A stretch of 64,000 nucleotides of DNA from Obrimoposthia wandeli (Eukaryota): contig CDROCS010000171.1 in the NCBI GenBank assembly GCA_977020255.1, positions 124,001 to 188,000 of the forward strand, in the 5' to 3' direction. The position numbers and the translations under genes were made by a program. Positions within the stretch are counted from its first letter, which is position 1, and every line of letters starts with the position of its first letter. Positions 2,311-64,000 of this stretch are shown here, in pieces. The notes under the pieces are model-generated. The model was not told the DNA's origin and did not search any database. It saw nothing but the letters and a program-made list of their open reading frames with translations.

Positions 2311-5019
2311 GCAATGAATTGCTTTGTATGCCACCGCACAATACCCAGAAATCCAAAAACTGCTAATGACTTCGTGTTAGCTAATTCATTTGAGACAATA
2401 CAAATCAGTGATCACAAAGCTGTATAAGAGCTATTGTATGATATTACAACTAGAAAATGCGACAAACTTTAATAAAGTTAAAATATTATGCATACAAAAA
2501 AGCTTCATCGTAAAGAATGTACTTTCTCTTCTTAAACACTTTATGAATTGTATTAAAAATTTATATTATAACAAATCAAAAGTCGCCAGGCAGTATACAA
2601 ATAATAAGTTTGAAAATGTTTTGTATGGATAGTTTTTGTAATTATTAAATTTTGTCACATTTTCTAGTTGTAAGACCATACTTTCTTCTAAAATGATTCA
2701 AAACCTGACGACAAATGATACTATAATGTACCCATATCATCATCAGATGCTCTAGCAAAGAAGAAATCTAAATAATCCCAGGAAATGATTCAATCCCAAA
2801 CGAAAATGTAATGTCTAATCAAAGTTTATTTCAGTGCTTGCTGTTCTATGACTTCTAGTCAGAGAAAGATTAACAATTTAGAATGATGTTTTTGTTGTTC
2901 AAAGTGGGGATCATATGACGAAAATTGATCTCGCTGTATAATCTGTGAGAACTAAGTGGATATTGTTTTCAAATAAACAGGTGTGCTAACTGTTGAAACT
3001 TATTTGTGTCAACTGTTTATTGAAAATCAAAGTTTAATATATTGTTATTTAACTTCTTTAATGTGCTTAATTATAAATATAAATGAAATAATAATAATAA
3101 TAATAACCATAACCATATCTGATTCACCCAGTCGAAATTCCCAACTTACCCTATTTAAGTACATGTCATCCTACAAATCTTTATAACCTTATCAGAAACA
3201 GTTAATGATATACGACACTAAAAAATATTCATAAAGCCATGTAAAGAAAATTATGACATTACAATCTAAATGGTAGATACAGTGATGTTTGATGTCCAAC
3301 CCGTCCCACTGTATATGTTGAAAAGCCAATTTTCTTGAACTATGGTGGATCTTTTTAATTTAAAATTATCATTTTTTATAGGTATTTCAAAGTATTTAGA
3401 TATTTTAGGTTCAACATACATTTTAAATGTATCTAGAAGAAAAAAAAAATTTGTGACGAATTCTCGTTTGTATTGGAAACCAATGTAATATTATTAAATA
3501 GGGGAAGAAATTTTCGATAAAGCAATTAACACTAAAAACCACAACATTAAAAGTCTCTGAAATTTTCAATTATCTTAACTTTAAAACTTGAATTTTGATC
3601 ATATCATCGAAAGTTCAATTTCACTATTTCAAAGCCCCGTATTTATAACTATTTTTCTTATTATAAACGCAAATAATCCTAATTAAATTAAATAATAATA
3701 CAAATAATTTGATTCCAGATATTCTATTTTATTTACATTAAAATAAATAAATATTTTGAAGTTTTTAAAGTTTTCAAAATCGAAACGTTAATATACTTTC
3801 TCCTTCTTAAAATTAAATTAATACTACCTGATTTTTCTCAAAGTACTAAGTAAACGATTCGGTGACTTATTTGATAGGGCGATAAGCTTAATCTTACACA
3901 ACGCAAGTCATGAAACTATAATTACATTTTGATTTATTTTAAAACATTATTAATTCATTGTAACTTTCTTAACAATTCCAAACAAATTTGAAAACTCATT
4001 TCAGTTAATGATTTTTTAAGACATAACATACTAAAATAGTATTTATTATAAATATTGTTAATCTTGTTAATTTGATGAATATTTTGGGTTTGTTCCAAAT
4101 TCTAAACCCAATAAAAATGGCAAAAAATAGGATCATATTTTGTTTGAAAGAAATTGTAATTAAGAATCAACTTTGATAACAGTGTGAAGTTTTTGTCAAT
4201 TTCTATTTGACTATATTTGTAGCAGCAATTGTAGAAGTGCTCTTAGAAACGCTAATAGAGATAGAGAGATAAATGGTAGTCGGCGGCGATGAACAGCAGG
4301 AAGAAAGCGTCCGTAACAAAAATCGACGGCTGCTGAGATAGACTGCGAGAAGAGCACATGGAGAGAAACCGAAGGAAAAGACAGGAATAGATATAGAGAC
4401 AAACAGGAGAAGATGGGATAGCTGATGCACGCATTTGAAACACGTTGAGTCACAGTCATCCAGGTGTTAGATTTAGTAATTGAGAAATTATTGAAAAATT
4501 AAATAATTTATACTAAAATAAAATCCTTGAAAGCAAGGTTGAAAATTAAATATTTAAAATTAAGTTAAAATATTAGAGGATAAAATCAGGGGTAAATATT
4601 AATAGGACCACGAAGGTCGTGTGTAGTGTGTCGTATATATAGGTTAAGATTATTAATACAAAAGTGCAAAAATAAGAATAAGAGTTAATTGGAAAAGGGA
4701 ACTAAGAAGAAAAAGGAAAACGTCAATCAGGAAAAATTCGCCAACGTAGGCATATTATTTTAATTAGATTTTAATTCCACTGACTTTCAAGAGCCAGGTG
4801 GAAATTGCCTCCACTCGACGACCGACTATATAAGTCGCCTCAACCAGTCAGAAGAAGAAGAAAAGTCATTGTCAGAAGAAGAAGAAAAGTCATTGTCGCA
4901 GTCATTGTCGCCGGAGACACACCAACAGCGGAAAAACTTGGGTGAGCGCTCCTAATTTGAGCCACATTAATTCGATCATTACAGAAATACAACAATCTCA
5001 TCAATCTGAAAATAGACAA

Positions 5020-5393
5020 CTCTATCTGATCCCGCGCCAGCCGATCGCACTACTCTATCTGATCCCGCGCCAGCCGATCGCACTACTCTATCTGATCCCG
5101 CGCCAGCCGATCGCACTACTCTATCTGATCCCGCGCCAGCCGATCGCACTACTCTATCTGATCCCGCGCCAGCCGATCGCACTACTCTATCTGATCCCGC
5201 GCCAGCCGATCGCACTACTCTATCTGATCCCGCGCCAGCCGATCGCACTACTCTATCTGATCCCGCGCCAGCCGATCGCACTACTCTATCCGATCCCGCG
5301 CCAGCCGATCGCACTGCTCTATCCGATCCCGCGCCAGCCGATCGCACTACTCTATCCGATCCCGCGCCAGCCGATCGCACTACTCTATCCGAT
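5020..5393. repeat. 33-bp GC-rich tandem repeat, 11.3 copies, inside the LTR
   Basis: Unit CTCTATCTGATCCCGCGCCAGCCGATCGCACTA. A T>C variant marks the last copies. Confidence 0.95.
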
Positions 5394-5562
5394 TCAGCTC
5401 AGCAATTCCCTCCGAGTTGGAATCAGTTCAAATTGTCTCACCGTTCCAGATCGGTCAATCTCCAGTTCTCAACTACAGTTTCTCAACTCAATCTCCAGCG
5501 CACTTCCAGCCATCATCTTAAACTAAAGGTATAAATACCCACAAATTTGGTGTGAATTAAAT

Positions 5563-6360
5563 TACATTTTGACTCCAAGATTTGAAAGTTGCCCTTAGTA
5601 GAAGAAATTGATTTGATATTAGAAATTGTATTTTATTTTGAGTTTACATTTGACTCCAAGATTTGGAAGTTGCCCTTAGTAAAAATAATTGATTTGATAT
5701 TAAAAAATCGTATTTTGAGTCTACATTTTGACTCCAAGATTTGAAAGTTGCCCTTAGTAGAAGAAATTGATTTGATATTAGAAATTGTATTTTATTTTGA
5801 GTTTACATTTGACTCCAAGATTTGGAAGTTGCCCTTAGTAAAAATAATTGATTTGATATTAAAAAATCGTATTTTGAGTCTACATTTTGACTCCAAGATT
5901 TGAAAGTTGCCCTTAGTAGAAGAAATTGATTTGATATTAGAAATTGTATTTTATTTTGAGTTTACATTTGACTCCAAGATTTGGAAGTTGCCCTTAGTAA
6001 AAATAATTGATTTGATATTAAAAAATTGTATTTTGAGTCTACATTTTGACTCCAAGATTTGAAAGTTGCCCTTAGTAAAAGTAATTGATTTGATATCAAA
6101 AATTGTATTTTGAGTCTACATTTTGACTCCAAGATTTGAAAATTGCCCTTAGTAAAAGTAATTGATTTGATATTAAAAATTGTATTTTATTTTGAGTTTA
6201 CATTTTGACTCCAAGATTTGAAAGTTGCCCTTAGTAAAAGTAATTGATTTGATATTGAAAATTGTATTTTATTTTGAGTTTACATTTTTGACTCCGAGAT
6301 TAGAAAGTAAAGTTGCCCTAGTAAAAGTAATTGATTCCGATATTAAAAATCAAAGAGAAT
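5563..6360. repeat. 77/82-bp AT-rich tandem array, about 10 units, with 159-bp higher-order dimer
   Basis: TACATTT(T)GACTCC starts at 5563, 5645, 5722, 5804, 5881, 5963, 6040, 6117, 6199 and 6281. Confidence 0.9.
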
Positions 6361-48132: not shown

Positions 48133-48230
48133 AGTAGGTGGATGTGTCCGGTCTAATCCACACCCCCATCCCCCCCTACTGTCCTTTAAAACCGTGTAGG
48201 TGTGTGGAGTGAAATTTCGTGTATGTGTGT
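48133..48230. repeat. Left terminal inverted repeat of Polinton copy 2
   Basis: Reverse complement of 2217-2310. Confidence 0.9.
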
Positions 48231-48504: not shown

Positions 48505-48911
48505 TTAAACATAAAACAACATATTGGCTTCACTCAAAGTCCAGAGAGGCTGCATTTTCCCGTCATCAGCAAAATATTCATTCAGACGTATTGAGATATT
48601 CCATAGTTCTTCATCTAGAATTGGAGCAATCAAATATCCTAGATCATCTTTAAAATCCAGACTGGGATCAGTTTCAAGCTTGAAACAATTTCCTTCATAT
48701 ACATAATCAGGAATGAAAAATATCCCAAAATATTTTTCAGTTGATCAAAATCAGTTGTTGTTAAAATTTCGATGAGATATTTTTTCTCCACTTTTGATAT
48801 TTTCACAGGATTCATAACTCGTATAATTTGATGCCTCTTTAATATATTACATAGTTTTCCTTTTGAAATTCTTTCTGGATAATAAAAATTTGCTACACAT
48901 CTCTTATCCAT
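48505..48911 (-). pseudogene. Polinton OB-fold/SSB-like paralog 2 (1-nt frameshift near 48722)
   Basis: MDKRCVANF...LKRHQIIRVMNPVKI...DFDQLKNIL, then in a shifted frame FFIPDYVYEGNCF...DDLG...WNISIRLNEY...MQPLWTLSEA. Aligns with the 49045-49521 product. Confidence 0.6.
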
Positions 48912-49044
48912 TCTAAAATAAGGAAACTGATTAAAAACAATGTTTATAAAAAATACACATAAGATACAAATAAGATACAAATAAAACTGATTATTAAATG
49001 AAAGAAACATAGTAAAACCGATTACAATTTATTACACACAAAAG

Positions 49045-49521
49045 TTAAAACATAGAAATATGAGCACGTTCAATTTTCCACATAGGCAACTTTGTTCCCA
49101 TTTCATCTTTCTTGTAACCATAAAGTCGAATTGTTACAGTCCATTGGTTCTTTTTCGGAAACGCATCAATATCAACATATCTTCCATAGTCATCTAGAAA
49201 TGCTTCATCGGCTCCTCGGATATAAAATTCGTTCTTATTGAAAGTAAAATTCGGAACTGCCTTTTCTATTTTCTGTTTAAGATATTGAAAATCAGGTTTT
49301 TGAATACCTGATAGATAGTAGCTGAACTTTCTTCTTTCAATTGTCACAGGATTTACTAAAGCAATCAGCTGAGCCTTCTTCAAGAATCTGACTTTGTATT
49401 TGAAATATTGTTTCACTTCTTCATACATATCCTTATCCGATTCTTCAAACATTTCTTCGTCATCGCTTAATACCCGTTGGCTATCATCCATTGTTGATAA
49501 TTGTCTTTGATATGAATGCAT
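49045..49521 (-). CDS. Polinton hypothetical protein, OB-fold/SSB-like paralog 1
   Basis: Intact 158-aa ORF with upstream TATAAAA (49559-49553). C-terminal WTVTIRLYGY...PMWKIERAHI resembles the terminal OB-fold strands (inference). Confidence 0.65.
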   Translation of the reverse strand: MHSYQRQLSTMDDSQRVLSDDEEMFEESDKDMYEEVKQYFKYKVRFLKKAQLIALVNPVTIERRKFSYYLSGIQKPDFQYLKQKIEKAVPNFTFNKNEFYIRGADEAFLDDYGRYVDIDAFPKKNQWTVTIRLYGYKKDEMGTKLPMWKIERAHISMF

Positions 49522-49732
49522 TTACTGTGATTTGTCCTCCAATGGCGCATTCTTTTATACTAATTTCTAACAAAGACATTAATCTCATTGGTTAATATAA
49601 CTAAAGCATTGAATTTGATTGGACTAAATCTATATTAAAAATCAAAATTGATTGGAAGAAATATATCATCCAATTATAATAGGTTTGCAAGATAATTACA
49701 AGAAACGTGCAATAAAAAAGCAGGTTCAGACA

Positions 49733-49767
49733 TATATAAAGAAGATTTTACAGAATACAATTTCAGT
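49733..49767 (+). promoter_or_regulatory. TATA box + initiator for the TBP-like gene
   Basis: TATATAAA at 49733-49740 and TCAGT at 49763-49767, about 30 bp apart. Several CCAAT/ATTGG motifs lie in 49580-49680. Confidence 0.6.
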
Positions 49768-49770
49768 CTA

Positions 49771-50253
49771 ATGAAACTCGTAAATATAAATTATAAAGGT
49801 AGAACAGAAGATGATGTTTCGTACTTACCATTCAATGAATGGAAGCCGAGACAATATGTAGAAAAGTTTGACAATTTCACAGTTGTTATTTTTCCTACAG
49901 GTTAGTTTTTTATTTTATTTTTATATTGAATTCTTTAGGAAATTGTCGTGAGATGCAAAATACCAATGCTTGGGTTCAATTTACCATTTGGAATTCAAAT
50001 CACTGCAATACAATCAATCACGATTTCGGCTAATCTCGGGAAACAGATAAATCTTTTTAAAACAGCAGAGAAAATGAAAGAAGAATGCATGTTTGAACCA
50101 GAAAATTTTCCTGCTCCCAGTTATTTGAAGTTTAAACCGCTATGTGTAAATATATTTTCCAGTGGTAAAGTTATGATATTGGGATTGAAAAATTTTGATT
50201 ATCCAGACATAGTTGATTTGATTTTAGAAAATATATCTTATTACATCTTGTAA
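49771..50253 (+). pseudogene. TATA-binding-protein-like gene (two TBP repeats; 38-bp intron 49901-49938; frameshift near 49950)
   Basis: Repeat 1 MKLVNINYKG...TVVIFPTG|NCR. Repeat 2 FEPENFPAPSY...CVNIFSSGKVMILGLK matches the TBP YEPExFPGL...LIFxSGKVVLTGAK motif. Confidence 0.8.
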
Positions 50254-50296
50254 TCTTTTTTCTATAAACAAACCCCGTTTAAACTTATTGTTTCAA

Positions 50297-50569: not shown

Positions 50570-50606
50570 TAATATAAACAATATTAAAAATGAAAGAGTA
50601 TATGCA

Positions 50607-51254
50607 ATGGAGCTAAATAATAATGCTGTATTTCAAATAGTTGGCCCAAGTGGAAGTGGAAAGACACATTTCGTCTGTAAATTGTTGCAAAATGAATCTC
50701 TTTTCAAATCTAGTTTCAAAAATATTTATTGGCATCATGGTGGAGGAGGGGAAAGCGGGTTAACCAAAACAGAAGTTTGCAAGTTGAAGGGTATAAAATT
50801 TATTGAAGGATTTGATGCAAATTGGTGTGAAAGATTGAAAAAAGAAGATGTAATAATAATTGATGATTTGTATGAGGAGGCTAACAAGGAATCGGACTTT
50901 AATAATTTATTTACAAAGATTGCAAGACATCGTGGAGTTACAGTTATATTTATCACTCAAAATCTGTTTCACCAAGGAGGTCACCATAGAACAAGAAATC
51001 TTAATGTACATTACTTAGTTTTATTTAAAAATCCTAGAGATCAAACAGTTGTTGATTTTGTGGCCAGACAGGCATTTCCTCAAAATAAGAACTTTCTAGT
51101 TGATTCATTCCACGATGCTGCTAAACAAGCACATGAGTATTTATTTATTGACTTTACACAAGCTTGCCCAGATGATTTACGTGTTTTAACAGACATATTT
51201 AATTCTAAGGGAGTAACTGTTTATAAACAAATAGAGAACAATTATAAAAAATAA
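50607..51254 (+). CDS. A32/FtsK-like DNA packaging ATPase
   Basis: Walker A GPSGSGKT, Walker B VIIIDD, and RHRGVTVIFITQNLF. Confidence 0.92.
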   Translation: MELNNNAVFQIVGPSGSGKTHFVCKLLQNESLFKSSFKNIYWHHGGGGESGLTKTEVCKLKGIKFIEGFDANWCERLKKEDVIIIDDLYEEANKESDFNNLFTKIARHRGVTVIFITQNLFHQGGHHRTRNLNVHYLVLFKNPRDQTVVDFVARQAFPQNKNFLVDSFHDAAKQAHEYLFIDFTQACPDDLRVLTDIFNSKGVTVYKQIENNYKK

Positions 51255-51261
51255 ATTCGCA

Positions 51262-51400
51262 ATGCCTTTTACAAAGTTGATAGTAAAACGTAAAGTAAAA
51301 TCTAAGAAATCAAAAAAAGAATCATTAAGAAAAAAGAAGTGAAAAAATTAATCAAATCTGTAGTTAAAAATAAAAAAAAACTTAAATGGCTTCGAATATA
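51262..51400 (+). pseudogene. Small Lys-rich basic protein (frameshift in A-run)
   Basis: MPFTKLIVKRKVKSKK, then in a shifted frame RIIKKKEVKKLIKSVVKNKKKLKWLRI*. Confidence 0.45.
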
Positions 51401-51432
51401 AACAATATTTAAATTGAACCTTTTTTATTAAA

Positions 51433-51762
51433 ATGAAGAAAATGCAAAGAAGCATACCCTATTTTAAAGCTTTAGTTAAAGCCTCTTCTAATAAGAGAAT
51501 GATTATTCTTAAAGCATTCCCATCCTTTGTTGTAGATGATTTATTGGAAGTTTTATATAATATAGTTTTGGGTCGAGTAAAAGTTGGAAATCGGAAAAAT
51601 ATATTAAAGAAATATAGAAAAACTCTTCTAGATATTGCTAATGTAAAAAGTAAAAAAAGGAAACGAAATATTATTCTTAAACAGAATGGTGGTTTCATAG
51701 GGGCTGTTATTCCAGTTGTTGCTTCAATTATCAGTAATATTATAGCTGCGACACGTTCATAA
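51433..51762 (+). CDS. Conserved Polinton virion protein with QNGG|F amphipathic C-terminus (adenovirus pVI/pX-like by inference)
   Basis: LLEVLYNIVLG...KQNGGFIGAVIPVVASII pattern typical of Polinton/adintovirus core genes. Confidence 0.7.
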   Translation: MKKMQRSIPYFKALVKASSNKRMIILKAFPSFVVDDLLEVLYNIVLGRVKVGNRKNILKKYRKTLLDIANVKSKKRKRNIILKQNGGFIGAVIPVVASIISNIIAATRS

Positions 51763-51790
51763 ACAATTATTTCTAAAATCAGCTAAAGAT

Positions 51791-52009
51791 ATGGGTGCTA
51801 GCCCTTCTTTACCTAAACTTAAATTTTCTTTCGATTCAAATTGTTGTAATGGAGAAGATATAATTCAATCCAAAAGATCCAATTGGCTACACAGGAGTTT
51901 CAAAATTAGCAAAAAGAACAAAACAAAATTACAAGAAAACGCAGAAATGGCTGAGCGATCAGTTAGCCTACAGTCTGAACAAGCCGATGAGAAGAAGGTT
52001 TCCAACTAG
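51791..52009 (+). CDS. Putative N-myristoylated small protein overlapping the integrase 5' end
   Basis: MGASPS fits MGxxxS. Open 72 aa in a different frame from the integrase. Confidence 0.45.
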   Translation: MGASPSLPKLKFSFDSNCCNGEDIIQSKRSNWLHRSFKISKKNKTKLQENAEMAERSVSLQSEQADEKKVSN

Positions 52010-52875
52010 AGCTTACAAAACCAGCGGTCCTAATAATTTATGGCAAATGGATTTGATGGAGATGATCCCATATTCTTCCATTAATAAGGGATATCGATAT
52101 ATTTTAACATGTATTGATGTATTTAGCAGGTTTGCTCGAGCAATTCCAGTTAAAGCAAAGTCTTCAATAGCTATGCTTGAAGCCATTAAAGAAATATTAA
52201 AAGAGGACATTCCACAAAATGTGCAAACTGATTTAGGAAAAGAATTTTATAATAAGCAAGTTCAATCATTATTTAAACAAAATAATATAAATCATTACTC
52301 TGTGTTTTCACAATATAAAGCAGTAGTAGAAAGATTTAATCGTACTCTAAGAGATCGAATAAAAAAGTATTTCACAAAAGAAGGAAATAAAAAATGGATC
52401 CAAGTTTTACCTAAAATAATACATGCATATAATCACTCTGAACATAGAGGTCTCAAGGGAATGAGACCTGTTGATGTTACTAATAAAAACTCTATGGACA
52501 TTTGGATGAACAGGAATAAAAAAGATAAAATTAAAAAAGCTAAATATAAGAAAAACGAATATGTTCGAATTTCGAAAATTAGCTCTACTCCATTTATTAA
52601 AAACTTTGATCAGAATTGGAGCGATGAAATATTTTGTATAAGTAAAATTGATCAAAAGAGTAATCCAATAATGTATACTATTAAAGATGCTGACAATAAT
52701 ATCGTTCACGGTAAATTTTACGAGCAAGAACTACAAGTAATATCAAATAAACCTAGCGTTTTCCGTATTCAAAAAATATTAAAATCTAAGGGTACAGGTA
52801 AACATAAACAATACTTTGTTAAATGGCATGGTTATTCAGACCCAACTTGGATATCAGCATCTAATATAATATTAA
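51849..52875 (+). pseudogene. int: rve integrase with C-terminal chromodomain (premature TAA at 51861-51863)
   Basis: MEKI*FNPKDPIGY...WLSDQLAYSL; catalytic WQMDL, QTDLGKEF and VERFNRTL; chromodomain KQYFVKWHGYS. Confidence 0.92.
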
Positions 52876-52879
52876 TTAT

Positions 52880-53928
52880 ATGTATATGGTTTTACCAAGT
52901 AACGGATGTCCGAAGACTCAACCAGATAATGACGCTAGTAGCTTTATTATCGATTGGGAAAATTCTATAAATCTCCAAGGAGAATGGGAAGCGGCTTTAA
53001 CAGAATTTTCTTTTTATTATTCTCCAATTACTATCAAAAAATCTCACATATTTCGTTTACAAAAGAAGTTGATCATGAAAAAACAACTGAAGTTGTGATC
53101 GGGTTTGATAGTAAAGGACAATTATATTACAATTGTATAGATAAAGAAGTGAAAGTAATATTTGAAAATAACAAAGTCAGATTTAAAAATCGATTAAAAT
53201 TTCTTCAAGTTATTAAAATTAATTTTGAATCTAAAAAAGAAGCTCTTCAATTCAGTTTTGATAGTGAATAAACAGTAGCTCGTAATAAACGGGATATTAT
53301 CTCATCTAATTCGGTTAGAAATGTTCCTGGTAGAGTAGCAAAAGTGTTGTTACTTGAAACGAGACCAAAGACTGTAGTGGAACTGAAAACGTTTTCAAAA
53401 GATTATAAAATAGATAGTGAAGTGAATTTCTGTAAATTAATACAGAAGGAATGTAGTGAATATTTGGATAAATGTGAAACATTAAATGGTAAATTAATGT
53501 TTACAGTAAAGAGCAATATAAAACGAGTTTCATTTGATGATAAACTCGCTAAAAACCTTGGTTTAAACAGAAATAGCTTTGAAACCTATACAATAAAAAC
53601 CATAAAAGCTAAAAATAAGGCAAAACTTTTAAATGCTGTTAATCATTTATATATTTATACTAATTTAATAGAACCAACGCTTGTAGGAGGACAGCGAGTT
53701 CCACTTTTGAGAACAATATGGATATCTAAAAATGAAACTAGAGATGGGGACACTGTCGGTATGTGTATAGATCAACCAATGTATCTTCCAGTTTCTCTCT
53801 TTTCTATAAACAATATTGAAGTAAATATTAGAGATGATTCCGGACAACTAATAGATTTCACGTACGGGGCCAAGACAAGTTTAACAATACATTTAAGAAA
53901 ACAAAATGGCGAATCCAGCAATAATTGA
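52880..53928 (+). pseudogene. Penton / minor capsid protein (frameshift about 53050, stop at 53269-53271)
   Basis: N-terminal LPSN...SF...LQGEWEAALTE and C-terminal YIYTNLIEP..VG...PLLR...IEVNIRDDSG motifs. Confidence 0.85.
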
Positions 53929-54283
53929 AGCTTATAGTCAAAGCCAACAAGGTGGAGAATTACCATATTTTGTTGGTAAACAATACGGATCTGGCTGGCT
54001 TAGAACATTAGGTAGATTTGCCTTTCCTCTTTTAAAGAGACTCGGGCGATTTATATCAAAATTAGGAAAGGATTACCTTTCATCAAAAGACAACAAACTA
54101 ATACCAACTTTTAAGAAGCATGCGCTTGATGAACTTGATAATGTTTTACCTGAAGTTGCTAATTTGATTAGAAAACGTAAATCAAATAAAAGCCAAGGAG
54201 GTAGTGGATTTAAAAGTAAAAAGAAGCTAAAAATTAATATAAACAAACGTAAGAAAGTTGAAGGAACAATATTTGCAAAATGA
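53906..54283 (+). CDS. pVII-like basic core protein
   Basis: QQGGELPYFVGKQYGSGWLRTLGRFAFPLLK with QxGxG motifs and a basic C-terminus. Confidence 0.75.
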   Translation: MANPAIIEAYSQSQQGGELPYFVGKQYGSGWLRTLGRFAFPLLKRLGRFISKLGKDYLSSKDNKLIPTFKKHALDELDNVLPEVANLIRKRKSNKSQGGSGFKSKKKLKININKRKKVEGTIFAK

Positions 54284-54465
54284 GTTGCGCCAAAACTGAA
54301 TTATGTATTTTTGATAAACCGCCTCCACAAGTAGTTGTAGATAATGCTTCCTTTGACGAAATATTCCTAGTTAACTCAGTTTCAGGAACCACTTTAACCG
54401 ATTTAGAATTTAATATTAATGGTTCCAAGAGCGAGTATTTAGATTTGAATGATACTTTGCTTTAT
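54280..54465 (+). pseudogene. Hexon / major capsid protein, 5' stub only
   Basis: CAKTELCIFDKPPPQ...LEFNINGSKSEYLDLNDTLLY is the Polinton MCP N-terminus. It then runs into antisense PolB sequence. Confidence 0.85.
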
Positions 54466-54475
54466 GATCATCATA

Positions 54476-57400
54476 CGAAACCTGTCCCTCGCTTTCATCC
54501 TTAAATTTCCCGATAATGTCCTTTAAACTCATAGAGTGTAGAGGATGGTTAACGGGATATTTATGGGTATCTAGTAAGTTGTCCCTAAACATTGCTGGTA
54601 ATAATTTATTATTTAAACTAACATTCCTACATTCTAAAAAGAAAGAGTCAGTGTCCCCAGCTGCGATTTTAATCTCACAATTAAATTCTTGTCGGTATTT
54701 CTCCAATTCTATGTATTGAAGCTCATACATTCTGAGTTTAGAAATGTCTAAAACCGTTTGACCTATATAACTCGGTCGATTGAGACAAATACTCTGTTTT
54801 ACTAATAACACTGCTACCAAGTCATCTGCAATTGTAAAACTACGCTTGAAGTTGTACTTGCTAGTATATGTTATTAGTTTACGCTTATCATTGCAAAACC
54901 GTAGACAAATACGTTTCCGCAAGTCCTCTACAGTTTTTCCAAAGAGACTATTACTTTTTAACTTGTAAAAATCTCGATCGAATTTGCTAGTGGCCAAATT
55001 ACGTTTTCTTGAATTCTTCTCAATATAGTCTTTAAACACAAAGTTTTGACTGAAGCTTATAGCACGATGAATTCGAGTAACTTTCGCTCCCAACTTTAAG
55101 TAGAATTGAAGAAGCCGCCAATGCACAACATAATTCAACTTGTCTTCATGGGTTAACAATAATTTCTTAACCTTTGAATTAGGTGGGCATTGATGAACAG
55201 GCGCTACTGGAAGATCATCTAATTTATCATGCACATTGGGAGGGATTTTTATGTCCACCTCAACCAAATAGCCGACGTCGGATGAAACTGTATCAACAGT
55301 AGCCAAATCTGTCATCAACTTATTCAACTGATCCACATCATAAACCCACTTAAAGTTGGCATGAGGTAGAGGTTGAGTAAGCGCCCACCCATACAAATTA
55401 TTAATATCGATGTACAGAATCTCCGTGGATTGATTTTTGACAACATGATGTTTGTTGACAAAAGTCATTCCACCGCGTATACCATAATCATACATTTGAT
55501 ACATCGCGGGATCTTGCAGTAACTCGATATTAATTTTAAGAGTTTTTATTGCTGTTGCCCATAAAAGACCAGGTAAACTAAAGAAATGCATGGGATCTAG
55601 CCCATCTTCTGCTAAAGACTTTACACGAAAGGACTCAAAAACATCAGCTAAAAGATAAATGTCTAACTTCATATAATAAAGCATATATTCTAAAAGATTT
55701 CGACAATTATTCACCCAAAATGTACGGGCCTCATTATAGTCTTGAAGACTTACACCCTCAAATTCAGTTATGGGTGGGATTTCACTTGTATTTTCTAAAT
55801 CTGCGAAAGTTTTCGCAAATTTATACGGAAAAATCCCCTTATCGTTAACCGAAGCTGGGAACACTGACTGTGTGATTGGCCATGCATTTAAAGATGCCGT
55901 TAAATTTTTTAAAGACCCGCTCAAAAACTGCAGAGAATCTATGAATCTTAAACTGCAGAATTATATGCAGTTAAAGATAAATATTTCTCCGAAGTTTGAG
56001 GTATACATGAAATTTCCCAAGAGCTTAATGTACCCAACGCGTATTTAAGTATATGATGCAAATCATATCCTTTGAGATTATGAAACACGATGGGAATGCG
56101 TGGTTTTTTAGGGAGACGACGGCCAAGGTTACAAAGGTTGCACGCCGCTCCCAAGTATCGCCCCGTAACATGATCGTGATCTCTGACTAACTTAGACTGG
56201 GTTCCACACAAATAACATAATCTACAAGAATTAAAATTAACCCAGTCTATGCCTGTCATGATCATTGCTTGATGAGCATTAAGATCATACCACGGTTTGA
56301 CAATTGTTGTTCCTAATTCCTCTAATTTTAACATCAAATCTAAAATACAATTTGGACCGGAAAATTTATGATACTGGATAATATTGGGGCCTAAGAATAG
56401 TAGTCTTGCCGAAGCCGGTAGGTGAATACTCTCATACTGGTCGTGCAATGCTAAAATTGACTCAAAATCTGCATACACCCTGAATTCCACGGGTATGCAT
56501 TTTGCCCAATCCCTGAATTTTAAATCCTTATCCTTAGGCATGCTATATAGCGTATTGTCATCAGGATTCAGTGAACATAATGTCAGATATTTGCTGTAAG
56601 AGAGCTCGGATCGGAACCCATGCAAACATCTATGACACCACTTACACATTATCCTAACTGGTAAGGATCCATTATCTAAATTTAGAAGACGATCTAAACT
56701 GGGAATTGCAGCATAATGGAATTTATTATTCTGTTCGAGCAAAATTAAGTTGACCTAAGTCCCCTCATTTTAGCTCCTATAAATTACATCTACAAAAGGA
56801 TTTTTAAAAATTTCTTCATCTGTTACATTAACTGGGATATCAGTATTATATTTGAATACATTAATACTCAAGTTATTAAGATGTTCAAATCTTGATATCG
56901 CAGTTAATTTAACAGGAAAATCTATTCCATGATACTGCAATTCATTTAAAAAAGGGGTATATTTACTGACACGCTCTCTATGCTCAGTAATTACATCCTT
57001 TTGAGGATGGCCAACACGCTATACAGAAAGCAAAGGTTATCACTGTTTTGTATGTTAACAATGGAACGTGAAAGTTGAAGAGATCTAGGTGAAGGAATGT
57101 ATGAACTCCCCGAAAGATATATCATGTCAGTGAACTTTGTTAGAACAAAGCTAACATCGTGAATTCTAACTAGAGTCCATCCACTACTTAACTCGCTATA
57201 ATTAGCAATTTTTTCATCCAGTTTTTTTCCAATTTCAGTTACAAAATTATCATAAAAAACAGTTGCTTTATGTGAAATTACCCAAGTTTTAGTTTCCTCA
57301 TTGACATTTTTAAACTGCACTGTTGCGCAAAATTGAACCTTAGCCTGTCCTAATTTAGTCACTTCTGATTTTAAAAGATTTTCAATATTTGAATCTACAC

Positions 57401-58666
57401 CTACGTTTAATAAAATTTCATTTCCTAATGGCACCTTAACTATAACATATTTATTATTTAGGTGATACTCTATAGTAGCACCATTTTCTCTACGTTTTTT
57501 GGGTGGGACCTTATTAAGAAATTGGCCTCGCCTCTTTCTTCCGTTTGTCGCTGACAAACCTCCCCCTAATTGAACGGTAAGACAACTATTTATATTAATA
57601 GTTGAGACAATCGCAGCTGAGGTTGAAGGTGCTGCTATTGGTGATGCTGCCGATGTTGAGACAATTGCAGTTGATGTGGAAGCTGCTGCTATTGTTGATG
57701 CTGCCGATGTTGAGGCAACTGTAGATGATGTTGAAGGGACCGCTGACCTTTCCGATGAAGAAACGGCTGTTGTAGAAGTTAGTGCTGCTGAAATAAATAT
57801 ATTAAAAAAATAAATATATTTTTAAAAATTATTACCTCTAAGACGTGCTAACATCGATGTAGGCACTCGCGATGGTGGAGGCATATCTGTTGTAGCAGAT
57901 GACGATTGTAGAACTGTATTTCCTGAATAAAAAATAAAAATAAAATATATATAATAAAAAATAAAATATATAATTTAAAAATAATAATAAAAAATACCTA
58001 ATGAAGGCAATCCAAGTTGAGCTGGAATGAAGTCCTCTTCATTGATGGAATCCATCCAGCTGTCGTCCGACATCTCGACGAATTCTGATTCCTCGATGGT
58101 CTCCAACCAGGTGTTGTCGCTCCACTGCTCCATCTCGAAATCTATCTGGGTGATATTTCGCATCCAGTCATTGTTTGAGAATTGGGTTGCTGGTGCCAAT
58201 TCCTCAAAATCTTCTTCGGATATGTCGTTCATCCACTCATTGTTAGACATTTGAGTGGATGTGGCAGCAGCAGAATCAGGAGCCGCGAGAGAAGGACCAA
58301 TGGCAGGACCATAAACTGGTAGACTGACTGCCACTGGAATTGGAGGTGGAGCTCGAGCGGCCTGCGAATCGCGCACCAATTGGACGATATCCCTCTTCTT
58401 GTTGTTGGCCGTGAAACACGATAGGTGAGCTCGATGTTCACAGAAGAATTCTCGAAACTCCTTCTCCTCCATTGTTCTGCAGAAGGGGCAGACGAAGAAC
58501 AGAACACCTTGAGACTTGGTCCGGTAGTATGCAGACATTGTCTCCATGCAGGACTCTCCTCCATGCGGAGCCGAAGCACCGCAATACGCAGGGAATAGGT
58601 TACACGTAATCTGAAATAATAAATATTAATAAGAAAATAATAAAAATAAATTCTTACCATAGGCAT
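54476..58666 (-). pseudogene. polB: Protein-primed DNA polymerase B with spliced N-terminal RING-like/acidic-repeat extension; C-terminus deleted
   Basis: Predicted exons 58666-58658, 58610-57998, 57922-57836 and 57787-about 54476, all phases compatible. PolB motifs DHDH, IVFHNLKGYD, YIDINNLYG, KSNSLFGK and GDTDS. Frameshifts about 57000 and about 55950, stops about 56760-56780. Confidence 0.88.
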
Positions 58667-59409: not shown

Positions 59410-59532
59410 AATTACCCAAATCTGTAGAAAATCCCGTTGTTTATAACGAAAAACTATTAATCAAAAATTTATTAAAATGACGAGGTAGTATTTAGACAAT
59501 TTATAACATAATCAATAAAGACAAAATAATAA

Positions 59533-62219: not shown

Positions 62220-63050
62220 TCTTGCTTCTTGATTAATGATATTTGATTTATGAAAAAATAATGAAAAGAGGTTTCCTTATATACAAAAATAATAGACTAA
62301 CCCCTCTTTTGTCGTCCAATGAGAGCGGGTTAATCAAATAATTTATTTGAAAATCAGTAGGCTTTTCTCAATTTTTTAACTATGTTTGAATGCTGGAATG
62401 TCATTGGATAAAACATATTTTATTCGAAAATATAACTATTTTCTTAAGATTTTCTTAAGATTTTCTTGTATAAGTTTAACGTCCAATGAAAACGTATTAT
62501 TCAAAGAATTTATGTTATTTTCTTAAATTTTGTTAATATTTGAATACATGTATGTCTTTGGATTTAAAATAGTGTTGGGGTTTCTATACGAAACTTGGTA
62601 TAGAGCCTCTTATGTGCGGAGGGCCCCAACGTGAGTTCGATTAGAAGCAGGTCTTAAAGTTGGTCGTGGCCTACTTAGTGTTATGGTTGCCTAATCTCTT
62701 GTACTATCTGAAGGTATTTGATTTGATGTCTCTTATTCTGAAGGGTGTAAAAACAACTTGTTCTAATGTAGGAAATTGTTTATTCAAAATTCACGTAACT
62801 AAACACCACAATACGTTTATGTACGTATCTTCTAAAAAGTACAGTAAAAATTCCTAAGACTTCTGTAAGTCTCTACCACAAGTGGGGATGAACCACGTAT
62901 CGATTTTATGCTAAGGGTGATCGAGTCTTTAGAGTCGTTCCTCTAACTCGCGAATAAGCTCAAGTTAAGATTTTCAAATTAATGTGGCTCTTATGTCAAA
63001 TTTCAATTTAACTTTATTGGTAAACTTTTATCTTTATACCAAAACTATGG

Positions 63051-63198
63051 CAATTTAGACAAAACTTCTCTTCAAACTTTTATGTCAATTTAGACAAAAC
63101 TCCTCTTCAAACTTTTGTGTCAACTTAGACAAAAACTCCTCTTCAAACTTTTATGCAATTTAGACAAAAACTTCTCTTCAAACTTTTATGCAATTTAG
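63051..63198. repeat. 35-bp tandem repeat x4
   Basis: CAA(T/C)TTAGAC at 63051, 63086, 63121 and 63156, with a partial unit at 63191. Confidence 0.9.
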
Positions 63199-63231
63199 GA
63201 CAAATTAGACAAATTGTAATGTCAACTTTAT

Positions 63232-63570
63232 GACAATTTTAAGATAAGGGAAAAACTTCTTTTATTTACTTCAGGACAATCTTAAGACAAATTATACAAA
63301 TCGTAACTTTACGACAATTTTATGATAAGGGAAAAACTTCTTTTATTTCCTTCGGGACAATCTTAAGACAAATTATACAAATCGTAACTTTACGACAATT
63401 TTATGATAGGGAAAAACTTCTTTTATTTCCTTCGGGACAATCTTAAGACAAATTATACAAATCGTAACTTTACGACAATTTTAGGATAAGGGAAAAACTT
63501 CTTTTATTTCCTTCGGGACAATCTTAAGACAAATTATACAAATCGTAACTTTACGACAATCTTAGGATAA
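63232..63570. repeat. 81-bp tandem repeat x4
   Basis: GACAAT starts at 63232, 63313, 63394, 63474 and 63555. Confidence 0.9.
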
Positions 63571-63653
63571 TTTTAGTAATCTCTCTTACGTTTTTTGATG
63601 TGTCTCGAGATTGAGGTATCCCGAAGCGCTCCGGAATATACTGCGATCGAACA

Positions 63654-64000
63654 GAGTTGTAGAATATTGGTAGTCGACGATATTTCTTTTAATAATAACT
63701 TTGAGTTGTAGAATACTTGTAGTCGGCGATATTTCTTTTAATAATAACTTTGAGTTGTAGAATATTTGTAGTCGGCGATATTTCTTTTAATAATAACTTT
63801 GAGTTGTAGAATATTTGTAGTCGGCGATATTTCTTTTAATAATAACTTTGAGTTGTAGAATATTTGTAGTCGACGATATTTCTTTTAATGATAACTTTGA
63901 GTTGTAGAATATTTGTAGTCGGCGATATTTCTTTTAATAATAACTTTGAGTTGTAGAATATTTGTAGTCGACGATATTTCTTTTAATGATAACTTTGAAT
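63654..64000. repeat. 49-bp tandem repeat, at least 7 copies
   Basis: Unit GAGTTGTAGAATATTTGTAGTCGGCGATATTTCTTTTAATAATAACTTT at a 49-bp period. Confidence 0.95.

Follow-up and report, generated by a model that had tools for sequence, protein, structure and literature searches.

A Polinton-linked family of compact TATA-binding proteins and the promoter word it may read in Obrimoposthia wandeli

The window, a 64,000-nucleotide stretch of the Obrimoposthia wandeli genome (assembly GCA_977020255.1, contig CDROCS010000171.1, positions 124,001 to 188,000), contains a Polinton that begins at position 48133 and ends about 1.1 kb past the window end. Terminal inverted repeats starting with AG, a protein-primed DNA polymerase (PolB), an rve integrase and a packaging ATPase were all present, as in Polinton/Maverick elements. 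The host genome is of animal type, 1.35 Gb in size, and harbors at least five Polinton families (A–E) bearing a gene for a TATA-binding protein (TBP) homolog, referred to below as mini-TBP. Family B was reached via its ATPase and family E via its polymerase, neither of them via TBP. The window element belongs to family A, and its mini-TBP gene is the first of a plus-strand block with ATPase, integrase and capsid genes (Table 1), as the first-pass annotation of this DNA had stated.

Table 1. Features of the window Polinton and its mini-TBP gene, in window coordinates
Feature	Position	Strand	Remarks
Left terminal inverted repeat	48133..48230	+	begins AGTAG; right one about 1.1 kb beyond window end
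ORFa, unknown family	48639..48911	-	apparent ORFb paralog by eye; TATAAACA 37 nt before ATG, at 48948
ORFb, unknown family	49045..49491	-	divergent orientation to TBP gene; canonical TATAAAAG at 49559
Five CCAAT/ATTGG boxes	49539..49674	.	ORFb-TBP divergent promoter region; 0.48 expected; noticed post hoc
Canonical TATA box TATATAAAG of TBP gene	49733..49741	+	
Initiator-like TCAGT	49763..49767	+	30 nt after TATA start
mini-TBP exon 1	49771..49900	+	ATG 49771; 130 nt; most of trimmed first repeat
Predicted intron	49901..49938	+	38 nt, phase-1, GT..AG
mini-TBP exon 2	49939..50253	+	second repeat; frameshift near 49950 in window copy
TATAAACA	50263..50270	+	34 nt before 90-aa ORF (ATG 50297)
TATAAACA	50573..50580	+	34 nt before ATPase ATG
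A32-like packaging ATPase	50607..51254	+	Pox_A32 2.5e-6
TATAAACA	51222..51229	+	inside ATPase end; 40 nt before 26-aa basic ORF
TATAAACA	51397..51404	+	36 nt before core-protein-like ORF
Core-protein-like ORF	51433-51762	+	weak Adeno_PX match, E 0.02
CATAAACA	51758..51765	+	33 nt before small ORF overlapping integrase start
rve integrase with chromodomain	51864..52970	+	
Minor-capsid-like gene (broken here) and pX-like gene	52942..54283	+	no Pfam match over cut-off; both labels presumed from position
TATAAACA	54238..54245	+	42 nt before major-capsid-like ATG (54280)
Deletion junction	54467..54470	.	about 2 kb less than sisters: most of major capsid gene, protease, polymerase end
Protein-primed PolB	54416..57821	-	split over several frames in window copy
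TATAAACA	59438..59445	-	36 nt before conserved ORF with DEDD-like start (label by eye; no Pfam match)

At the deletion junction, seven of eight sister copies have about 1.9–2 kb of additional sequence and one has 0.85 kb. In the stretch deleted from the window copy, the sisters carry a protease-like gene and a 415-aa capsid-like gene; the latter had no Pfam match and is presumably the major capsid gene, judging from size and position. The protease gene has an apparent short intron just 3' of its start codon in families A (L037, near 8130) and D (L318, near 7940). Of the 79 TBP loci, 19 contain homologs of ORFa/ORFb, and intron-like stretches are often present upstream of them. For the beta-rich C-terminus of ORFa/ORFb a nucleic-acid-binding fold is a guess, and the single-sequence fold of ORFb was unusable (pLDDT 44). 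CCAAT boxes occur in NF-Y-driven two-way promoters; their cluster at the ORFb-TBP promoter is not supported as a trait of the whole mini-TBP family (19 vs 13.6 expected in 36 relatives) and is particular to family A. Tandem arrays with units of 33, about 80 and 49 nt occupy positions 4917-6270 and 63026-63998, the second group lying inside the right arm of the Polinton.

The exon-2 frame of the mini-TBP gene matched the Pfam TBP family PF00352 (4.5e-11, 42.9 bits at a cut-off of 22.9) and 35 PDB sequences, down to 5e-13, all of them TBP or TBP-containing. The gene is a TBP homolog, as had been claimed from the letters alone. Read through its own splice, the window copy stops after 74 aa owing to the frameshift, and none of the GT..AG pairs near the intron whose frames were checked bypasses the break. 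This copy is therefore frameshifted and dead. The first-pass annotation had wished to see frame continuity near 49950 verified in intact copies; of the best-scoring sister copies, 22 of 29 have an open frame across the predicted intron. The open sisters encode 149-176 aa, which makes the stop at 50251-50253 atypical. The sisters come from a search of the host genome that scored 150 places, all with at least 93% identity, out of 31,239 loose candidates, a number that is not a copy number. Exon 1 was present in 29 of the best 30 copies; these were chosen as the best exon-2 matches, which biases the open fraction upward. A further family-A copy has its right end at positions 1-2310 of the window, and its TBP gene (L365) is likewise cut off after 74 aa. 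The same stop also occurs in L016, and its sharing by the window copy and the upstream copy on the same contig suggests a local duplication.

Families A, B and D have a GT..AG intron of 35-40 nt, differing in its AT-rich sequence, at the same glycine codon. At that site, families C and E have no intron and a continuous frame, and all 69 metagenome relatives covering the junction are continuous without one (68 by pattern, one by eye). As expected of a spliceosomal intron, it has GT..AG ends, and once it is excised the exons form a single frame, uninterrupted as in the homologs. The 38-nt size suits the host, since host TBP has a 47-nt intron, located at another site. Because A, B and D share the site and C, E and the metagenome relatives are continuous, the predicted short intron is well supported and was probably gained in the host lineage. 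The intron proposed from the window sequence thus stands, with comparison as its basis. Its joint was not among 15 listed joints from four runs of one sample (204 more are outside this list, and the kind of the runs is unrecorded), which bears neither way.

A full-length relative of 152 aa (P0002), used as a query, retrieved 92 homologous proteins, 70 of which were aligned; fragments, some near-duplicates and two archaeal-like matches were left out. A profile search gave 393 matches at 1e-12, 120 of them listed. Full-length relatives scored 61.3 and 65.5 bits against PF00352. From metagenomes, 79 loci were kept, comprising 72 family members and seven cellular-TBP-like loci (L131-L137) that were not counted as family. 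Core Polinton genes accompanied TBP in 36 of the 79 loci; among the 30 loci of at least 3 kb, 24 had them. No matches for the TBP, ATPase or capsid alignments were found in a viral contig collection, and none for the ATPase in a phage collection.

In a tree of 56 rows, the 31 family rows formed one side of a long branch (support 100/99), the other side holding 18 archaeal and 7 eukaryote-type rows, 25 cellular TBPs in all; the tree names no donor. An open family-A copy is identical to family B at 79 of 144 positions and to host TBP at 33 of 101. Between family A and the other families, pS was 0.69-0.95 and pN 0.25-0.36, most pairs being saturated at silent sites and the L086 row, a misread frame, being left out; where dS was measurable, dN/dS was 0.15-0.25 (about 0.2). 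Since the tree split, the identities and a pN far below pS agree, mini-TBP is, by these comparisons, an old, constrained Polinton-linked gene family of about 150 aa. Recent capture from the host, which the first-pass annotation had named as a possible refutation in the form of a host pseudogene absent from other copies, was rejected: the gene is family-wide, open in most of the sister copies examined and far from host TBP. The host genome itself encodes a canonical TBP and several TBP paralogs, including intronless divergent ones; two of the latter (L050, L051) have open frames of about 230 aa, and the canonical gene has an inverted paralog adjoining it (L047). Several BRF/TFIIB-like paralogs were also seen (L294-L301), some duplicated on one contig.

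The structure predicted for P0002 (not for the window copy) had a pLDDT of 95.5 and consisted of strands, with no helix of four or more residues in positions 1-82 and helices only at 83-93 and 133-151. All 38 listed PDB matches of this model in Foldseek with E<0.001 were TBP-containing (TM 0.68-0.77), and viral TBP-like folds scored below cellular TBPs. The hhalign alignment to cellular TBPs (99.3%) spanned both repeats, with an 11-residue gap at helix H2. The model and alignment show a predicted two-repeat saddle of the TBP type in which helices H1 and H2 of the first repeat are missing, so the doubt raised beforehand about whether the fold is that of TBP is settled in its favor. With helix 2 gone, the protein would no longer offer surfaces to partners such as Mot1/BTAF1, TAF1 and Brf1.

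The word TATAAACA occurs at nine sites in the window element, seven of them 34-42 nt upstream of a start codon. Of the other two, one is the palindromic partner of another site and one lies inside the minor-capsid gene. Six sense sites fall in the structural block, where 0.41 would be expected (0 of 300 shuffles). Enrichment of the 8-mer in the window as a whole is only mild (15 vs 8.9; 4 of 100 shuffles). In family B, a gene with BIR and RING domains (IAP-like) lies directly 3' of the TBP gene and behind TATAAACA (L158:3547-4443), and a frame resembling it by eye is located near the family-D TBP (L319). IAP homologs are mentioned in the adintovirus literature (PMC8502044).

Among the relatives, near-duplicate upstream windows were removed and one window per gene with a start far upstream was dropped. 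All 18 relatives counted for the ATPase have ATAAAC upstream of it (0.66 expected); the figure is 5/7 for the core-like gene, 5/8 for the capsid gene and 7/11 for the DEDD-like gene. It is the top 6-mer of the structural-type windows (35 of 44), at a median of 37 nt from the ATG; the preceding base is T in 26, C in 8 and G in 1, and the following base A in 31 and G in 4. Where the word overlaps the upstream gene, it is read in differing frames. All five TBP-bearing host families contain it. Within 60 nt it is rarer before the pX-like gene (1/6), the protease (0/4) and the integrase (3/8), and some copies lie within genes and are followed by no ATG. No excess of initiators was found 3' of the word (6/28 vs 6.8 expected).

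The TBP gene itself has a different upstream region, with ATAAAC in 2 of 38 relatives (1.48 expected) and a canonical TATA in 18 of 38 (3.05 expected), the other 20 promoters being without canonical TATA. In 13 of 15 TATA-bearing relatives, an initiator-like word follows the TATA at 24-33 nt (3.6 expected). The TATA-TCAGT spacing reported at first for the window gene is indeed present, but the pattern alone is common in the AT-rich DNA here, with three occurrences in 14.5 kb of the element and 12 in 41.5 kb outside; it gains weight only because of its position and the relatives. These counts show two putative promoter classes, TATA with an initiator at the TBP gene and the ATAAAC word at structural genes.

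We propose that mini-TBP is probably the Polinton's own late-promoter factor, reading the ATAAAC word to switch on the structural genes. Early on, the mini-TBP gene would be transcribed by host TFIID and RNA polymerase II (Pol II) from a standard TATA and initiator, and the spliceosome would remove the short intron in families A, B and D. The product would bind ATAAAC, whose C is generally unfavorable to ordinary TBP, and would recruit host TFIIB and Pol II via its stirrup, turning on the packaging/capsid (structural) block. Lacking helix 2, the product would evade the usual convex-face partners of TBP, and the C in the word would keep the structural genes quiet until the factor is made. Wild-type TBP disfavors C in the downstream half of the box. 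C is disfavored there also in the selections with the yeast variant TBPm3 (PMC1636458). The suggestion of the first-pass annotation that the protein redirects host Pol II to the TATA promoters of the element is the best reading as far as redirection goes; its likely target is (T/C)ATAAAC(A/G) before the structural genes and not canonical TATA. The canonical TATA and initiator of the TBP gene most likely serve host TBP to make mini-TBP.

The word could instead be read by a host factor (host TBP, a paralog or a forkhead protein), with mini-TBP a helper or otherwise employed, but we consider this unlikely. ATAAACA fits the forkhead consensus, several divergent TBP paralogs are available in the host, and wild-type TBP was crystallised on a C(-25) variant according to the title of PDB 1qn3. 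Against these points, the word has a single orientation (35 sense vs 0 antisense in 44 windows) and a narrow distance from the start codon, the forkhead core GTAAAC occurs in only one of the 44 windows, and the word recurs in relatives from many metagenomes. It is also absent from a family of the same host in which TBP was not detected. This family F is a distant Polinton whose integrase frame is PLA2-like; it also has a jelly-roll capsid, an A32 ATPase and a PolB of another type. TBP was detected neither in its best-preserved copy, of about 14.7 kb, nor in eight further regions; strong TBP matches near family F adjoin A-E-type genes, and a weak edge match (E 0.014) lies outside F genes. ATAAAC preceded the ATPase in none of 17 family F copies, the ATPase start not being located in 3 of the 20 loci. 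As a control, F is one distant, more decayed family that counts once and in which a very divergent TBP could be missed. Family F (L308-L310 and related loci) is of the Alpha type; its start codons are preceded by an A/T-rich run of another kind, and its copies are frequently interleaved with family A-E elements.

The DNA-binding face of mini-TBP is consistent with an altered specificity. Surface positions were counted in the 70 aligned relatives, with yeast numbering. For I194, V203, L205 and P191 the numbering follows PMC1636458. Asn replaces V71, Arg replaces V122 and Met replaces T124 in all 70 relatives, and Arg replaces I194 in 69, Cys V203 in 70 and Asn L205 in 70. Yeast I194, V203 and L205 are the three residues that alter TATA specificity in TBPm3 (PMC1636458). 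The residue mapping is supported by hhalign; a gap adjoins the Cys, so its match to V203, resting on strand periodicity, is less sure. The first-pass annotation had singled out the DNA-intercalating Phe residues and the TFIIB surface. Three of the four Phe are kept (69, 70 and 70 of 70), but at the first position the residue varies (Tyr 17, Cys 16, Phe 12). The first central Asn is kept in 68 relatives and the second is Ser in 67. Two C-terminal stirrup glutamates, which have a role in TFIIB contact (PMC10005294), are kept in 68 and 69 of 70, as judged by sequence.

A retained TFIIB-contact stirrup with the other partner surfaces gone is what a poison subunit would look like, and mini-TBP might then hold TFIIB or occupy host TATA boxes, dampening host transcription, for example of defence genes. 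Such a decoy or dominant negative, put forward at the outset as the other option, is quite improbable: it accounts neither for the private promoter word nor for the invariant new residues on the DNA face. The kept stirrup also speaks against a role of mini-TBP as a DNA-bending factor for replication, integration or packaging, as does the location of the word, which precedes start codons and has none of its nine sites in the left terminal repeat. TBP folds do bend DNA, and the TBP gene adjoins the ATPase/integrase block in many relatives, yet this is the least probable of the readings that we weighed, and a part in transcription is preferred.

All 22 open family-A copies have Ser at a position where 69 of 70 relatives have Arg, and a protein with this substitution may be impaired. 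Together with the variable 3' ends (149-176 aa) and the presence of four other TBP-bearing families in the same genome, this could mean that the family works as proposed while the family A gene is weakened and borrows the factor from the word-sharing families B-E. We hold this to be very improbable, since family A retains the remaining invariant positions, its pN is much lower than pS in comparisons with the other families, and the open copies have a mean identity of 98.4% over 231 pairs, indicating recent expansion.

A wider reading has, in our view, slightly less than an even chance. Mini-TBP and its word would be a lineage-wide orthogonal switch with the smallest natural two-repeat TBP, in which one early gene retargets host Pol II to a private word. 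This would give an element of less than 20 kb a true early/late cascade, and co-resident families, sharing the code, could cross-activate one another. On the question of whether animal Polintons ever behave as viruses, a dedicated late factor with a matching word ahead of the capsid and packaging genes, if real, would argue for a timed virion programme, and the word and factor would offer a simple marker of when these elements switch on. Mini-TBP would also be a natural TBP with altered specificity, out of reach of the usual regulators, and a probe of the parts of TBP needed for Pol II initiation. The value lies in the family; the dead copy in the window adds little.

Polinton/Maverick elements (adintoviruses) have PolB, the rve integrase, the A32 ATPase and terminal inverted repeats in common with those described here, and their protease and capsid genes have probable counterparts in the protease-like and capsid-like genes of the sister copies. 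TBP is outside their recognised core genes, as the first-pass annotation correctly stated. The transcription factor reported for some Polintons is VLTF3 (PMC11131425). A "TBP" label is found in the MELD/adintovirus genome maps of Starrett et al. 2021 (PMC8502044; 10.1101/697771); there it is a figure-legend abbreviation in the section on non-animal datasets, and the accompanying passages give no family, structure, promoter word or mechanism. A search by term found no TBP in PMC12220804, PMC11131425 or 10.64898/2026.06.19.733378, and no account of the mini-TBP family or of the promoter word was found in the literature searched, a scope lying outside subscription journals and Repbase.

Like cellular TBP, mini-TBP is a two-repeat saddle with three of the four intercalating Phe, the first central Asn and a FEPE-type stirrup. 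It differs in its length (about 150 vs 180 aa), the absence of H1/H2 in the first repeat, Ser for the second central Asn, the fixed Arg, Asn, Cys and Met on the DNA face, and its location on a mobile element. The TBP-like proteins of giant viruses (mimiviruses, ASFV B263R-like), which appeared among the Foldseek matches, are also divergent viral TBP folds; they serve a virus-encoded RNA polymerase, whereas no RNA polymerase gene was seen in these Polintons, and host Pol II is indicated for mini-TBP because of the short spliceosomal-type introns. The TBP mimics of beta- and gammaherpesviruses (KSHV ORF24, EBV BcRF1) also have a virus-encoded TBP fold, for which recognition of a variant TATA ahead of late genes and use of host Pol II have been proposed; each is a large protein that carries a Pol II-binding domain at its N-terminus and acts in a six-protein complex (PMC7498053). 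The likeness lies in a word before structural genes, although the word is another one (ATAAAC) and late timing is only proposed here. Unlike these mimics, mini-TBP is, in the members covered, a bare core of about 144-160 aa with no Pol II-binding domain, is nearer to the cellular TBP fold and would rely on TFIIB. That mini-TBP drives late genes as the herpesvirus mimics do is, by this analogy, the best reading, and mini-TBP with its word would represent a new form of viral TBP mimicry, in an element that is far smaller.
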